NCBI GenBank assembly: GCA_019358935.1
Contig: JAHHIK010000015.1
Coordinates: 37,028-101,027, forward strand
Source of the DNA: Tolypothrix carrinoi HA7290-LM1
GTDB lineage: Bacteria; Cyanobacteriota; Cyanobacteriia; Cyanobacteriales; Nostocaceae
Direction: 5' to 3'
Length of the DNA stretch: 64,000 bases
Shown here: piece by piece, positions 42,001-63,000 of the stretch
Layout: each line of letters begins with the position of its first letter
Numbering within the stretch: the first letter of the stretch is position 1
Position numbers: made by a program

Positions 42001-45000
42001 GACTGAAAATCCTCGTGTCACCAGTTCAAGTCTGGTTCCTGGCATTCTTTATTTATAGTACTTACAGCTTACAAGCAGTCTTCGCAATTGCTGTCGTTAA
42101 TTTAATCTGCTTAAAATCTGCTTAAAATCTGCCATAAATTTGCTTATTATATTAGTTTTATTAATCACCAGTCCGGGCGACTAGGTCGTCTCCAGCAATC
42201 ACAGTAGTGTAAAAAATATAATTTTTATCCGCTTGATAGCGGCGATCGCTCTTCACCAACCGCATAAATTCCCGATGTCCTTCACGTCGGCGCCCCACCA
42301 AGCACCCAGCGCTAGCATTTTTAATATCGTCGAGCGGCGCATCGTATCCCCAGTGCTGGTTAATCCCGAAAAATCCGGTGTCCAGCTTGTCCCCAGTTCG
42401 TTTAAAATCTTTGTTGAAATCCCGACAGACGGTGACAGGTTCCACTTGAATTAAAGCTTCATGGGGTTCCGCGTTGCCGTGAGTCCCCACCGCCCACGCC
42501 CGATACTGCCCGAAAGCAATTCGCGCTGCTCCTTTTGAATTCATTGGGTTGTGGGTGTAATGAGCGCCCGGTTCGGTGGTTGCTTGCCAGTGGTTGACAA
42601 TTTTGGGCACTGAGTCAACGATTTCGATGATTATGCGGCGATCGTTGAATTGATTGGGTGCGTCATCGTTGAGACTGCCGTTTTCATTCATGCCCTCAAC
42701 ATAGATAATATTGTAATTTCTTGCTCCGCTAAAAACCACGTAATTTTTAGCTTGCATGTACTGAATTATTTTATCGGCTAGCATAATATATTAGGGATTT
42801 AAATCAGCAGATACGGCTGCTGACATATAAGCTTTAATTCGTTGCAAAGTAGAAACAAGTAAGGTAACTTGCAAGTTCTCAATCAAAATATCGATATTAG
42901 CTGTTTTTACAGTCGTATATGTTGGCGTACTAACAGAACCGGGTGTGGAACCGGCAATATACCCTTGAGAAGTGGCTCTAGCAACATCAATTTCAAAGTG
43001 GATATTAGCAGCTTCAGTGCTAGTGACTGGTACGCTTGAGGTCGTTAATTCATTATTTGCACTTTCTAGTGTGTAAGCAAATAATCTATCAAGAGTACTA
43101 GCAACTAAATCAGTTTTCAAATTAACAATTGAAATTCTAACAACAACAGTCTTTGGAGAACTTGGAGGACTGCTAACATTAGTCTCAAGCTGAATATTTG
43201 GAAATATTTCTTTTTGAAAAAGTGGCGCGGCACGGTTGGCAGCACCAAATGTTGGGAAGTCAGCCATAATATTTTATATTCAAATAATTGAAAATTTAAT
43301 CTTTCTTATTAGCTGGAATTAGTTGAGCCAAATAACCACCGACACCAATTTTTGCTAAATCACCAAATGCACTCCTAACATGCTCGTCTTGAACCGCTAA
43401 AATAAAAGTGCCAATAACTAATAGTAGGACTATAACCGAACGTGTTTTTAAGCGCTCCAATATCAATTTCATTCGTGTTTATATTGAATATTCAAATAAG
43501 TTTTTATTTCTAGTAAATCTTGGTCAAACGAATTCAAGCGCTTATCTAAGTCATCAAAGCGTTTGTCAAAATCTTTTGCTATCTCTGCAATGCCACTTGA
43601 GATATCTTTTTGATTGTTTTTTAAGTGATTGAAGTCGCGTTCTGCCGCATACTTTTTCTTTTCAGAGTTTGCATACCAGATTACGTACCAAACTACCACA
43701 CCAAAAATGTTAGTAAATAAAGCTAGAAGAAAGGCTCCTAAAGCTATCAAAGTTTGTGCGTCAAATAGTTTCATTTCAAAAACTATAATTTTATTCTTTT
43801 TCTAATTTCAAGGTTTTCACGCTTTTACAACAGATACTCTTTTGCACTAATTACCGGGTGTCCTGAATCATCAAAGGATACTGTTAAAGGAAGGTTGATA
43901 GTTCCTGAAGAGATTTTATCATCAGCATCATAAGCTGAAAAGACATTATTTTCCGAGTTAGGATTCTTGAGAACATCGCTTTCTTTAATTTGTAAGAAAG
44001 CAACAATTTCTAAAAAGTATTGTGAGAGCGAAGTTGATTTAAAAGTTCCCCCGTCTCCAGGACTAAAAGGCACATTTTGAAGATAATCCGTTCCAACAAG
44101 AATTATTTGTCCCGCATCATTAATAGATTGAGTTGCTGGAATTGAGAAACTGCCAATAGCAGTTAAGCTATCTAGATTATAAGATAGTTTAATCAAATCT
44201 CTGTTAGTAGGATTACTAATTGTATTTCTTTCTTGATTTTGAAGGTAAGTAATTACCTCTAGCAAAAGTCCTTCGGCTGTTGCAGATTTAAAAGAAGCGT
44301 TAGAGCCAGGTGTAATAGCAACCATTTAAAAACTCCTCAAATAACACAATCAAAATTTTGCGAATACCCAATGGGTATTCACAAATAGCAGCTTGTTGCC
44401 AAAAATCCAGACTTGCTGTTATGTTTGGGACACAATTGCGCTGAGAATAGTTTATGCCACGTCGTCGCCAAAGATTTTCAGATTTAGAAAGACAGTTCAG
44501 AGAAAGTGGGGGAGTCGCAGCACCCGGTAGTCGTCTTGCAGGCTACATTGATTTTAAGAAAGGCACTAACAAAATAGAAGTCAACAAAAAATTAACCGCA
44601 GCAGAACGCAAACGATACGGATTTGCAATTCTTCCCTTTGGTGTGACTCCTGAGGCTACTACTCCAAAAAGATATGCAGCTGCAATTACAGCTTATTCTA
44701 ATGCCTCTCGATCTACGTTGGATTTGGACAACAACAAGCTTGGATATGAAAATATTGATGCTGGAACCGAGCAAGCCGGAAACTTTTATCCAGCGCTTTT
44801 AAGGGTTTTTGTAAAATCGGGAACGATAGACGAAAGTAAAAAATCTGGGGTTACACAGAAAAATTATCGACGTATTGGGGGTACTACTTACAGTTATCCC
44901 TTTGGCAGAACTACAACTGGGGTAAGTGACGCTGAAACTGGAACAGCAGAAACAGCAGTCACTAATGTAGACGAAGAGGATGTCCGGAAAGCTTTGACAA

Positions 45001-60000: not shown

Positions 60001-63000
60001 GAATACATTGAGAAGTCACCCGTCAACCGCGCTGTATTTTTTGGAAAAACTGCCAAATGGTATCCGATGCCAAAACTTGAAAATTACTCAGGATACGACA
60101 GAGATAGCCACAAACCACTAGAGGATGCTGCAACAATTAGGCAACAATTAGAGGTGGCATTTAGCTTTGAAGATATTAACGAACAACCCGAACAAAATAT
60201 TTTCCTTTCGCCATCAGCGGAGTCGATACTTCATTGGTTACAGACTAATCGCAAGGAACAATGGGTTAAATACAAGGGAAGCGATCGCGACATGTCTTTC
60301 ATTAAATTTTTAAGCCAAAATAATATCAAGGGCGAAGACAAGTCCGACGCAATAATTGAGTTGTTTGATGCAGGAAAGATAGAGATAGCGGACGACGATT
60401 CAGCAATCAAACTCCTCTAGTCGTAGTTACCTGTTACCCTGTTACCCTATTACCCCCAAAGAGCGTAAACAACGAAGTAACAACAGGTACAGCCTGCGGT
60501 AACAGGTAACAACAACAGGTAACGACAACAGGTAACAAAGCAGTAAACTGTTAGTAAATACTTTTCAAGGACTTAAAAAGATGGATGAATTTTGTATTCG
60601 TTGCGGTAGTACAAACATTACCTTTGACCGCGATTATGGATTCTACCGTTGCAACGATTGTAATGAGACGTGGGCATATCCTCAAGACGATCCGGATTAC
60701 TACGAATTCGACGACCTCGATTTAAGAGACTTGTTATTAGAACAATTTGGAAACGGTCGAATGACGTTTATTCCGCCCTACTAAATATATTCTGAGAATT
60801 ACGACCGATTGCAGTTAAATCAATTCGGTTGTAACTATTTAACCGTAGCGGAGTAAAACTTTAACAGTGCTAAAACCATCTGAATTACAAAATTTTTCAA
60901 TAATTGGACAGCTTGCCTGCGACTGCCTTGCTGATTGGGGCTATGATTTTGATTTTCTTCTAGTTAAATCAATCGTTTGGGATGAGAACCGAGAAAGTTG
61001 GATCGTCGGGCTTATTGATAATTACAGAGTTCCCAAGGACATTTGTGTAGCGATACAGCCATACGGGGACTCTTATCGATATAGAGGAATTGTCCGCTAA
61101 CAAATTTCACTAGTGCCGAATTTATAAACGTTTGGTGATAGCCAAAAACAATGGACAATATTGACATGCAAATTACCACAGCCAACTCTCGTTTAAAATC
61201 TCAAAATATTGGGCTTGCTATAGAACGCGATGGCGGAAGGTTGCGGTTGCAGGGAATATTTCCCCCTAAGCCGGACTCTGATAGAATTGGGGCTTTTCAA
61301 CAGCGACTTTATCCCGATATTCGAGCTACCTCTGAAGGAGTACGTCTTATTGAAAAAGAAGCGTTGAAGATTCGGTTGCTGCTTGATGAACGCAAATTCG
61401 ATTGGGAACCGTACTTAAAAATATCTGTTTCTGCACCTTTATCTGTGGGTGATTGGATTAATTTATTTGAGGAAGACTACTTTAATCGCCGCCGTCGCAC
61501 ACCTCAATCAGAAACCACTTGGAGAACCGAATATCAACACGTCTTTCGCCATCTGCCACAAGGTCAAGAGCTAACTGCCAAAGTTTTGCAAGCACAAATT
61601 TTGGCAACCGAGCCAGACTCCAAAACTCGCAAGCGCTATTGCATTTGCTTGGGAGCGCTTGCCAAATTCGCCAAACTCGACTTTAACGCCAAAGTCTTTG
61701 CGGGGGACTATAACCCTAGAAAAGTTACGCCGCGAGATATTCCGACCGACGAACAGATCGTTGAATGGTTTTACAAAATTGACAACGCGAGTTGGCGCTG
61801 GGTTTACGGAATGCTGGCAACCTTTGGATTGCGAAACCATGAGGTATTTCGGTTAGACCTGAAAGCGTTTGAGAATTCTCACATTTGTAGTGTGTTAGCC
61901 AATACTAAGACTGGTGCCAGGCGAGTCTGGAGTTTTCATCCCGAATGGTTGTCAGAATTTAACTTGCATGAAATTTCGCTTCCCAAAGTTAACTTATCAA
62001 GCCCAAACGCAAATTTGGGACACAGCATCACCCAATATTTTTACCGTCACAAAATCCCTTTTCCGGCTTACAGTCTCAGGCACGCATGGGCTATCCGTAC
62101 CCTGGAATACGGTCTAGATATTTCCTTGGCAGCTCAACAGATGGGGCACTCGTTGAAAGTCCATAGCGAGCTGTATCATCATTGGATAAGCGATCGCCAA
62201 CATCAACGCGCTTTTGAACTGTTACTAAAGCGATCGGACCGACCCCTGCCACCTACCTAGTTTGCTTATATGTGTTTTATGTGTCGAAGTTTAGCACTGG
62301 CAAGGATTTTACTCAATACCACTTTATTCTTTCCCTGTTAACGGAGAAAACACGTTGGGCTGAAAATCCTCGTGTCACCAGTTCAAGTCTGGTTCCTGGC
62401 ATACATTTCAGAAAAATAAAGCTCTTGCATATTGCATAAACTTGCATACAACTTGCATACGGTAAAAGACACCGTAGTAGTGGTAGCGCGATTGGATATT
62501 GGTCGCATGTCCGCTTAAAGGGTGTTGAACAGGGTGTAGGGGGTAGGGTGTGGGGTGTAGGGTTCGGTTGGATGGGGATTCTAACCCCAACCAACCTTTA
62601 TACACCGTAAGACGGTGGGGTCTTAAACCCGAATGCTCCTGGGGCGGGGTGTGAGCATTCTTCAAGGTATTCCCCACACCCCATCACTGCAACCCCACAC
62701 CCAGGAGCGAAGCGACGATAAAAGGGAGATAAGAAATAATCATACTTCGTCTGTCTATGCAAGTTATATGCAAGTCAATACCCCTTCGGGCTATGAAGGT
62801 GACGGGTGAGAAGTTGGTGTAAGCACCACACAATCTTCAATCAGTCTCCAGCGGCTTGAGGTCGCTAACAGGATACTCTAGGTATTTTTGCTCTTTCTTA
62901 AACCCACCAACAACCTGTATGGCTACGATGCCTTCTCTGTTACTCAAAATTTGCTTGACAAGAACTCGTTCGCCTCGGAAGTGTTCATTATTCCCGCAGT

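Follow-up and report, generated by a model that had tools for sequence, protein, structure and literature searches.

To our knowledge, little has been learned about temperate viruses that infect filamentous and heterocystous cyanobacteria, and we are not aware of any tailless cyanophage with a defined structure. Among the classes relevant to a small integrated element, Inoviridae have a rolling-circle ssDNA genome and a conserved membrane-anchored morphogenesis ATPase (pI/Zot). PICI/P4-like satellites, typically ~12-20 kb with an integrase and a primase-helicase at a tRNA, carry genes that hijack a helper (small terminase, capsid-size genes) and lack an autonomous set of structural genes. In the corticovirus PM2, the spike is described in an excerpt of PMC9719478 as one protein that makes up both the penton base and the outer part. 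Portogloboviridae (Sulfolobus polyhedral virus 1, SPV1) are archaeal and presumably non-lytic; they combine ~20-kb circular dsDNA, single-jelly-roll capsid proteins, a nucleoprotein core, and vertex complexes, with no identifiable replication protein (PMC8459092). An internal lipid membrane is a further mark of that family. In AICEs, an integrase is accompanied by a replication gene and a single DNA translocase of the FtsK type, according to the excerpted text of PMC3218068. Finally, a 37-kb element of Anabaena variabilis resides at a tRNA 3' end, encodes a 368-aa tyrosine integrase, and excises as a circle (bioRxiv 10.64898/2025.12.09.693284); an excerpt of PMC4148955 reports that it encodes a terminase-like protein.

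The element analyzed here lies in the window, a 64,000-nt stretch of Tolypothrix carrinoi HA7290-LM1 contig JAHHIK010000015.1 that starts at contig position 37,028; all coordinates are positions along this stretch. We read it tentatively as a provirus in tRNA-Phe, a temperate, tailless dsDNA virus that represents a new family, with a motor-less jelly-roll shell around protein-condensed DNA, a reading that we consider possible and somewhat short of probable. Its observed basis comprises the att repeats, an integrase, a primase-helicase, a conserved gene core, the jelly-roll fold of g08, and circular replicons that carry the structural module.

Integration site and replication genes

The boundaries and backbone genes are as follows.

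41972..42044, plus strand: tRNA-Phe(GAA), the integration site (tRNA call)
42003..42045, plus strand: attL, 43-bp core (exact repeat)
62360..62402, plus strand: attR, 43-bp core (exact repeat)
51475..51780, plus strand: LuxR-type HTH regulator (family match)
52139..54826, minus strand: g19, primase-helicase, 895 aa (DUF3854 and VapE)
52630..52908, no strand: three ~42-bp repeats inside g19, two direct and one inverted (repeat scan)
54917..57583, no strand: g20-g26, small regulatory and backbone ORFs (ORF calls)
61151..62260, plus strand: g32, tyrosine integrase, 369 aa (PHROG 1, E 9e-16; family searches)

The genome-wide survey's note had described an element with an integrase and a primase-helicase, bounded by a perfect 43-bp repeat of the tRNA-Phe 3' end. 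The repeat was found again in exactly two copies in the assembly, 20,357 bp apart from att to att; g32 is a tyrosine integrase, and DUF3854 and VapE domains are both present in g19, whose ~42-bp repeats are candidate origin iterons. In one sequencing run, possibly of this DNA, contig depth was 518-526 over the element and 495 in the flank; contig depth is not a copy number, and it gives no sign of strong amplification. When 110 crude CRISPR spacers (42 from the same genome) were compared with the elements, only self and repeat matches were returned and no true match. Neither this comparison nor a DNA search of 301 genomes, which scored too few candidates per genome for spacer-sized matches to appear, is informative.

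The conserved core

The genes of the core and its surroundings are listed below.

42791..43267, minus strand: g02, 158 aa, small Ala/Thr/Ser-rich protein with no family match in Pfam or PHROGs; putative structural role
43825..44325, minus strand: g05, 166 aa, an ~83-aa unit in tandem duplication; candidate coat or sub-capsid protein
44454..45101, plus strand: g06, 215 aa, basic core protein; candidate DNA-condensing or coat protein from its model and charge
45103..45375, plus strand: g07, ~90 aa, acidic and helical (ORF extendable to 45016)
45377..45757, plus strand: g08, 126 aa, single jelly roll (model); candidate capsid or penton protein
45754..46494, plus strand: g09, 246 aa, basic core domain, homologous to F273
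46491..47486, minus strand: g10, 331 aa, four hydrophobic stretches; candidate membrane or entry protein

Across 34 loci found through g06, g09 or F273 is present in all 34, g08 or its slot-mate F4 in 33, g07 in 32, and the small-unit slot is occupied in 33. The 20 loci picked through F4 all hold a g09-type domain, and 17 hold g06 and g07. Judged by gene content, g09, g06, g07, and g08 (or F4) define the family, rather than g16 or the ATPase.

F4 is a marker in 123 of the 301 family genomes sampled (41%), and relatives are carried by 19 genomes from 8 other families (among 401), other cyanobacterial orders included. The survey's attribution to Nostocaceae thus stands as to presence and fails as to confinement. 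Cultured strains also carry relatives, among them Calothrix sp. NIES-2100, Cylindrospermum sp. NIES-4074, and Nostoc linckia NIES-25, and the module sits on varied replicons. The 20,803-bp circular pMIC7113.08 of Allocoleopsis franciscana PCC 7113 holds relatives of g05, g06, g07, g09, g10, g12, and g16, and pHT582-1 has a type-B module next to a ParB gene. Many relatives appear shorter than 20 kb, and many copies are decayed, among them relics in the same genome and pHT582-2, which has no g06. The survey had found no relatives in IMG/VR contigs or INPHARED phages, and this held for every tested gene, nor did any link to a cultured virus emerge; because these genes were not found there despite the frequency of F4, hallmark-gene tools would miss the family. 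We found no published description, although supplementary prophage tables could list such regions. The picture of a virus-like family that is widespread, undescribed, and probably tailless is therefore supported, and it now includes circular forms, more lineages, and a second jelly-roll slot that is nearly universal.

The g06 model (pLDDT 93.6) is an alpha/beta fold with a long beta-hairpin. The protein has a net charge of +10 and an Arg-rich N-terminus. No fold match was found (best Z 3.8 in VIA; no Foldseek viral or PDB match at E<=0.001), and the weak structural rows at Z 2.5-3 are ferredoxin-like domains. The predicted fold is unmatched among known folds, which is not the same as a proven new fold. 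In a rival reading that seems unlikely to us, the element is a virus whose principal coat protein is g06 (or the g05/F3 unit) in an unseen capsid fold, the particle possibly being non-icosahedral, with the jelly rolls serving only as vertex or spike bases. The confident yet unmatched model, the arginines, and the hairpin argue for it, as do 661 50%-clusters of relatives and tandem duplicates of g06 in elements L109 and L112, F3 genes being likewise duplicated. Against a coat role, the g06 slot in some elements holds basic proteins of 123-225 aa that lack detectable homology to g06, which looks more like an exchangeable DNA-condensing protein; codon usage among the element genes singles out no major capsid gene, g06 included.

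Acidic g07 (net charge -15) lies immediately 3' of g06 in 110 of 121 loci and is a candidate partner of it, as chaperone or scaffold. The homology of g09 to F273 spans 200 columns (hhalign P 89, E 2e-6); a weaker match joins g09 to the C-terminus of collagen fibers (E ~1e-3), an Atlas search gave no usable match, and in some relatives (P0244, P0257, P0269) g09 is fused to g10. The two halves of g05 align to each other (P 99.3), and L241 has a single 80-aa unit. Homology among g05, F3, F54, g02, and U6 was looked for and none was demonstrated; their grouping is post hoc. PDB sequence searches with g06, g08, g09, F4, g16, g29, and the L231-type protein returned nothing meaningful.

The jelly-roll slot

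The g08 model (pLDDT 88.9) is a single jelly roll. Its structural matches, at Z 6-7.8 with none at 8 or above, include viral capsid, penton, and cement proteins as well as cellular jelly rolls. Viral capsid proteins score highest (up to Z 7.8), followed among cellular folds by PNGase F (Z 7.4), the endospore-appendage subunit Ena pilin (Z 7.2), and GOLD domains. The match to the PM2 P1 stem (Z 6.2) is no better than to unrelated jelly rolls, and the sole Atlas lead is a YidC periplasmic domain (0.88). Since these scores stay under 8 and are tied with cellular jelly rolls, g08 remains a candidate capsid protein only. It is equated with F4 only by position and pattern; homology was not demonstrated (hhalign P 0.1). 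Most F4 proteins have a short coiled coil at the end, and longer fiber-like proteins are headed by a g08-like domain, as expected of spike bases, which favors the reading with a g06 coat.

The resemblance to Ena bears on a non-viral explanation, in which an AICE-like element releases an appendage or bacteriocin-like fiber (collagen or coiled-coil stalk, jelly-roll subunits) upon lysis. The backbone of tRNA integrase, primase, and membrane ATPase cassette does exist without the structural module, as in the circular 17.3-kb Scytonema HK-05 plasmid6, and varied replicons carry the module. However, an appendage offers no obvious task for the basic proteins g06 and g09, and on the maps read the module is mostly found next to integrases or replication genes, or on small plasmids, as it would be for a virus. 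We consider this explanation distinctly unlikely.

Lysis-like genes and candidate spikes and fibers

Lysis-like genes occupy the left end of the element.

42161..42784, minus strand: g01, 207 aa, probable lysin (PHROG 3000, E 1e-38; endolysin phrog_33083, E 6e-12)
43296..43472, minus strand: g03, 58-aa membrane protein, putatively holin-like (predicted membrane helix)
43469..43774, minus strand: g04, 101 aa, N-terminal membrane helix and coiled coil, putatively holin-like

The g01 protein has an H-x14-S-A-G-C motif at 144, which we take to resemble the catalytic motif of L,D-transpeptidases (YkuD); its gene family is also common outside these elements, with DNA relatives in many genomes. Relatives of g03 lie beside lysins or at module ends, and the holin PHROG match of g04 is weak (E 0.047). 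Lysins are present in only 13 of the 34 elements, and differing types adjoin the module in relatives (the g01 type and the amidase U12). The recurring protein U29 may be a third; by eye it resembles a protein with a weak Tlde1 match.

The central minus-strand block encodes the candidate spikes and fibers.

47489..47812, minus strand: g11, 107 aa (ORF call)
47812..49626, minus strand: g12, 604 aa, Cys-rich ends and variable middle; candidate receptor-binding spike
49626..49802, minus strand: g13, 58 aa (ORF call)
49799..50200, minus strand: g14, 133 aa, fiber-tip module (phrog_3285 minor tail protein, E 3e-12)
50253..50588, minus strand: g15, 111 aa, paralog of the g16 C-terminal domain (hhalign P 96.6)
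50606..51400, minus strand: g16, 264 aa, two-domain beta protein, accessory; read earlier as a PM2 P1-like spike

The 33 element ORFs gave no match to terminase, portal, or HK97 capsid in Pfam, PHROGs, or NCBIfam, as the survey's note had stated; its further claim of no tail gene was overstated, since g14, a fiber-type module, matches a PHROG minor tail protein. PF03237, the sole terminase family tested genome-wide, is absent from the whole genome and found in 5 of 14 controls. Recurring neighbors of the module (47 representatives) include integrases, primases, endolysins, and fiber modules, and no terminase (small terminase included), portal, or head gene. By these searches the element lacks the hallmarks of a Caudoviricetes prophage. 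It could instead depend on a tailed helper phage as a satellite with a PICI/P4-like backbone, supplying only its own fibers, decoration, and lysis proteins: the integrase and primase-helicase at a tRNA fit, as does the size, and the fiber and cement-like jelly rolls match tailed-phage parts. We nevertheless judge this very unlikely, because neither the element ORFs (PHROGs) nor the recurring neighbors contain a detectable helper-hijack gene (small terminase, capsid-size), and a core of four to five genes with no known tailed-phage counterparts would be left unexplained.

The membrane-anchored ATPase and the PM2 question

57622..60420, plus strand: g27-g28-g29, a 164-aa protein, a four-helix membrane protein, and a membrane-anchored P-loop ATPase (504 aa)

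The survey's membrane-anchored P-loop ATPase is recognizable in g29, which has a predicted N-terminal membrane helix, Walker A/B motifs, and a Gln motif. There was no FtsK Pfam match for g29, a HerA-like match was weak (E 0.57), and the Pfam search of the element ORFs gave no Zot match. The ATPase is present in 2 of the 34 g06-found elements and none of the 20 F4-picked loci. ATPases of this type occur in 85 of 301 genomes and on 22 plasmids, mostly away from the module, and 13 of 17 places with close relatives have no structural-module gene in the flanking DNA examined. Because it is so rare among the elements and is carried by others that have no structural genes, g29 is probably not a packaging motor; g27-g29 form an accessory cassette and a candidate module for cell-to-cell DNA transfer.

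These counts weigh against a PM2-like corticovirus or varidnavirus in which g16 would be the penton-spike and g29 the packaging ATPase, a reading that now appears highly improbable. In its favor, the survey reported a match of a g16 model to PM2 P1 (Z 10.2), the g16 profile aligns weakly and colinearly with P1 residues 34-131, and the PM2 spike is a single protein. That alignment is not significant (E 0.096), a broader g16 profile against nine PM2 proteins did not place P1 among the best four, the PDB sequence search with g16 gave no PM2 chain, and nine element-family profiles had no significant match to the nine PM2 proteins. No element protein has a double jelly-roll profile match, and neither the g06 nor the g08 model shows that fold. 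With g16 in just 8 of the 34 elements, PM2-like character, as proposed earlier, is not supported as a family trait.

A proposed model for a motor-less particle

For the tailless virus that we favor, the life cycle could proceed as follows. Upon induction, the integrase would excise the 20,357-bp circle, which g19 would replicate. Basic g06, kept soluble by acidic g07, may then condense the DNA, and g08 (F4 in most relatives) would assemble around this core, as the shell or its vertices, with no packaging motor involved, by analogy with the shell around the nucleoprotein core of portogloboviruses. Proteins of the g05 type could be sub-capsid or coat components, with g12, g14, g15, and g16 as swappable spikes and fibers. 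The g10-g09 pair may act at the host membrane during entry, and g03/g04 together with g01 would lyse the cell. The g27-g29 cassette would be part of the integrative backbone, and its probable task is to move DNA from cell to cell rather than into capsids.

If particles form, the elements would represent a new family of viruses whose core protein has an unmatched fold, and they might be the bacterial equivalent of capsids that are filled with nucleoprotein and need no motor; the novelty concerns the set of hallmark genes and depends on particles being made. In the broadest version, which we regard as somewhat doubtful, it would be a large cyanobacterial virus lineage missed by databases, with a g06 (nucleo)capsid fold unknown in virions, motor-less assembly, and some members spreading along the filament via an AICE-like DNA translocase.

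Comparison with known systems

Membership in the Inoviridae was rejected on the rarity of the ATPase (2 of 34 elements), the missing Zot match, and replication by a primase-helicase. The Anabaena variabilis element is likewise cyanobacterial, sits at a tRNA 3' end, and has a tyrosine integrase, but it differs in size; set apart by description, it is excluded from the family because of the terminase-like protein in the excerpted report (PMC4148955).

AICEs share the integrase plus replication module, with another type of replication protein, and a backbone similar to the one that includes g27-g29. They differ in that the element is cyanobacterial, g29 lacks an FtsK Pfam match, and the element has structural and lysis modules, neither of which is described in the excerpted text of PMC3218068.

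Corticoviridae (PM2) and the element are both tailless, the latter as judged from genes alone. The element has no detected double jelly-roll capsid and no rolling-circle initiator, its replication gene being a DUF3854 and VapE primase-helicase, and its genome is twice as large. Nor is a conserved packaging ATPase found beside a capsid gene: g29 is membrane-anchored and not conserved.

Portogloboviridae differ in host, the element having cyanobacterial rather than Sulfolobales hosts, and in that the element encodes an integrase, a primase-helicase, and lysis-like proteins. Sequence comparison revealed no link, SPV1 proteins being set apart without direct comparison. The likeness lies in the genome, a ~20-kb circular dsDNA as suggested by the att-to-att length and the circular 20,803-bp relative, and possibly in the predicted single jelly roll of g08, a putative capsid protein that need not be kin to VP4/VP10. 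For an element known from its genes, Portogloboviridae would be the best analogy for a motor-less particle.

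Integration site and gene content

The element lies in a tRNA-Phe gene whose 3' end is duplicated exactly over 43 bp, and the excised circle would therefore measure 20,357 bp. This att core occurs in only two copies in the assembly. We labelled the 32 ORFs g01 to g32 from the left and scanned them, together with one flanking ORF, against protein-family libraries. The following features lie in and around the element.

39605-41895: host flank, presumably encoding an ABC transporter for metal ions and a regulator of the ArsR/SmtB type
about 39950-40049: in-frame 9-bp tandem repeat in the transporter ATPase gene of that flank
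41972-42044: tRNA-Phe (ARAGORN)
42003-42045 and 62360-62402: the 43-bp repeat
44454-46494: g06-g09, running opposite to the remaining structural genes
44454-45101: g06
45377-45757: g08
52630-52908: iteron-like ~42-bp repeats, direct and inverted, within the primase-helicase gene
57622-60420: g27-g28-g29 cassette
63076-63900, minus strand: second tyrosine integrase just past attR, at the contig end

The scans identify g32 as a tyrosine integrase, g19 as a DUF3854+VapE primase-helicase and g14 as a fibre-tip protein (PHROG 'minor tail protein', E 3e-12), and they reveal a LuxR regulator; g01 is a probable lysin, judged by its match to an endolysin PHROG (E 6e-12). Terminase, portal, HK97 and double jelly-roll families have no match among the 33 proteins, and PF03237 has none anywhere in the genome. 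Contigs of sequencing run X1 carry a third att-core copy with different flanks that is missing from the assembly. This copy and the second integrase beyond attR suggest that a second element is probably stacked at the same tRNA.

A widespread family with a conserved core

Relatives of g06 occur in 29 of 301 family genomes (single query) and form 661 clusters at 50% identity, and a g06 profile run against 401 genomes from across the phylum matches 36, of which 19 lie outside the host's family. Named carriers (80 loci kept of 95) include Nostoc, Calothrix, Rivularia, Anabaena, Nodosilinea, Leptolyngbya and Halothece. No relative was found in scans of IMG/VR or searches of INPHARED; the pattern-based scans among these can overlook distant ones. 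Gene maps of related loci reveal a single module that recurs in different arrangements, and close relatives differ by shuffled gene blocks. Type A, as in this element, comprises g05, g16, g12, g11, g10, g09, g06, g07 and g08. Type B, the commonest, combines small genes of the F3 or F54 kind (between one and three), a variable Cys-rich gene and F700 (a coiled-coil or collagen protein of 700-900 aa) with F273, g06, g07, F4 and genes resembling holins. Profile alignment shows g09 to be homologous to F273 (P 89, E 2e-6); position and pattern equate g08 with F4, and the small-unit genes (g05, F3, F54, g02, U6) with one another, and in neither case did sequence comparison detect homology.

Three sets of loci define the core. 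First, at 34 distinct loci reached via g06 with sufficient flank, g09/F273 is present in 34, g08 or F4 in 33, g07 in 32 and a small-unit gene in 33; a lysin is encoded at 13 of these loci, g16 at 8 and the ATPase g29 at 2. Second, a 73-locus set, partly chosen through F273 and hence biased toward it, gives 73, 71, 70 and 71 for the same four genes and 17, 9 and 3 for lysin, g16 and ATPase. Third, 20 loci picked from 209 F4 matches for high scores and long contigs, a few of them overlapping the earlier loci, hold a g09-type domain in 20, g06 with g07 in 17, g16 in one and the ATPase in none.

The genome-wide survey's note described a widespread, undescribed and probably tailless family, and this description is supported. 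The element is real and att-bounded, the F4 profile has hits in 123 of the 301 genomes sampled from the family (part of these inspected), and no published account was found in a literature search whose scope left out most subscription papers and supplements. Many F4 copies are likely relics, and the same genome holds five further family relics of several subtypes (contigs C22, C55, C79, C119 and C120). A short CRISPR-like array of six spacers lies ~1.3 kb past the holin-like gene of one relic (G000:C119:8430-8900, L145). In many relatives (41 loci; L253-L272 and others), a divergent tyrosine recombinase of ~195 aa, absent from this element, is encoded immediately upstream of the structural operon.

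Free and tandem forms also occur. The circular plasmid pMIC7113.08 (20,803 bp, Allocoleopsis franciscana PCC 7113) carries the module, with relatives of g05, g06, g07, g09, g10, g12 and g16. On pHT582-1 (37 kb) the module adjoins a ParB gene, and upstream of it ~93-bp repeats form a long tandem array (L230:3800-6210); pHT582-2 bears a decayed copy without g06. Tandem duplicates have periods of 20,327 bp (genome G095) and 15,393 bp (G037).

Predicted structural proteins

The g06 model, built from 148 sequences (pLDDT 93.6), is of the alpha/beta type, and a long hairpin spans 114-150. Its secondary structure corresponds to neither a jelly roll nor an HK97 fold, and no match was found among 48,161 solved chains (best Z 3.8), in BFVD or in Foldseek PDB. 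The protein is basic (net +10) and directly followed by the acidic g07 (net -15) in 110 of 121 loci. In some elements its place is taken by different basic proteins (123-225 aa), for which no homology to g06 could be detected:

L231:4342-5019
L237:3758-4408
L241:7497-7946
L143:3393-3872
L253:11634-12005

One such family, with at least 84 members, weakly matches the uncharacterised phrog_26653 (E 3e-4); the L231-type protein, with a weak match to this PHROG, seems internally repeated. By eye, and as an impression only, the alternative proteins and g06 have a strand-helix pattern in common. g05 is a duplicated 83-aa unit. A virus with g06 or the g05/F3 unit as its main coat is an unlikely reading, albeit one to be taken seriously.

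g08, unnamed in the survey's note, is modelled as a single jelly roll of eight strands (pLDDT 88.9). In structure it comes closest to VP1 of picornaviruses and to the coats of geminiviruses and satellite viruses (Z 7-7.8, rmsd 3.4-4.4); lower scores, Z 6.1-6.8, go to turret, penton and cement proteins, and cellular jelly rolls tie. In g08/F4 the family thus has a near-universal slot for a candidate capsid or penton protein, although a Z below 8 is too low to fix a role. In several relatives g10 and g09 are fused into a single ~530-aa protein, and in others collagen fibres end in a g09-like domain (weak, E ~1e-3); g09 therefore more probably belongs to a complex for entry, or to a spike, than to the capsid. 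A non-viral appendage gene cluster is an improbable explanation of the locus.

The survey's note also read g16 as a counterpart of the PM2 spike P1. By sequence the resemblance is weak (E 0.096) and disappears with broader profiles, so the link keeps the note's structural model as its basis. As a family trait the PM2-like spike is not supported, g16 being present at 8 of the 34 g06-found loci; the label should be dropped in favour of g06, g07, g08/F4 and g09/F273 as markers. We consider a PM2-like virus very improbable.

The ATPase cassette

In g29 a membrane helix is predicted near residue 33, and Walker A and B motifs lie at 187 and 274. Relatives of this protein were found in 85 of the 301 genomes and on 22 plasmids. 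Around close relatives (17 places: 15 genome loci and 2 plasmids, several contigs being short), structural-module genes were seen in 4 and not in 13, the latter including plasmid6 of Scytonema HK-05, a complete 17.3-kb circle that carries an integrase gene together with the g26-g29 cassette. It is thus part of an integrative backbone common to elements with and without the structural module. The g27-g28-g29 cassette (L233, L235, L239, L243-L247, L249-L252) marks a separate, common integrative-element and plasmid family without structural genes.

Proposed mechanism

The integration anatomy, the gene core, two folds (g06 and g08) and circular replicons are observed. The element would excise and then replicate through its primase; g06 with g07 would condense the DNA circle, around which g08/F4 and the small-unit proteins may form a tailless shell without a motor. 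Swappable spikes (g12, g14-g16, F700) would bind the host, g10-g09 would breach the membrane, and g03/g04 and g01 would release particles. This motor-less tailless virus, with a jelly-roll shell around condensed DNA, is our tentative preference, held at somewhat less than even confidence. The autonomous-virus readings taken together are likely, and a satellite is distinctly improbable. We conclude that the family is real, widespread and apparently undescribed and that its members are probably tailless viruses, with particle formation and capsid identity as predictions.

Comparison with known systems

The element lacks defining features of tailed prophages, PM2-like viruses, inoviruses and portogloboviruses. 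A 37-kb element of A. variabilis likewise excises from a tRNA (bioRxiv 10.64898/2025.12.09.693284) but differs in its terminase-like gene (PMC4148955). In AICEs, double-stranded DNA is moved by one FtsK-type protein (PMC3218068); the g29 cassette resembles these elements, although g29 has no FtsK Pfam match, and the g27-g29 elements without structural genes are possibly a cyanobacterial counterpart of AICEs. Spike swapping between tailless viruses is discussed in PMC9719478. The closest architectural precedent for the proposed particle is Portogloboviridae, whose circular DNA measures 20 kb and whose particles have capsomers of the single-jelly-roll type and a nucleoprotein core (PMC8459092).
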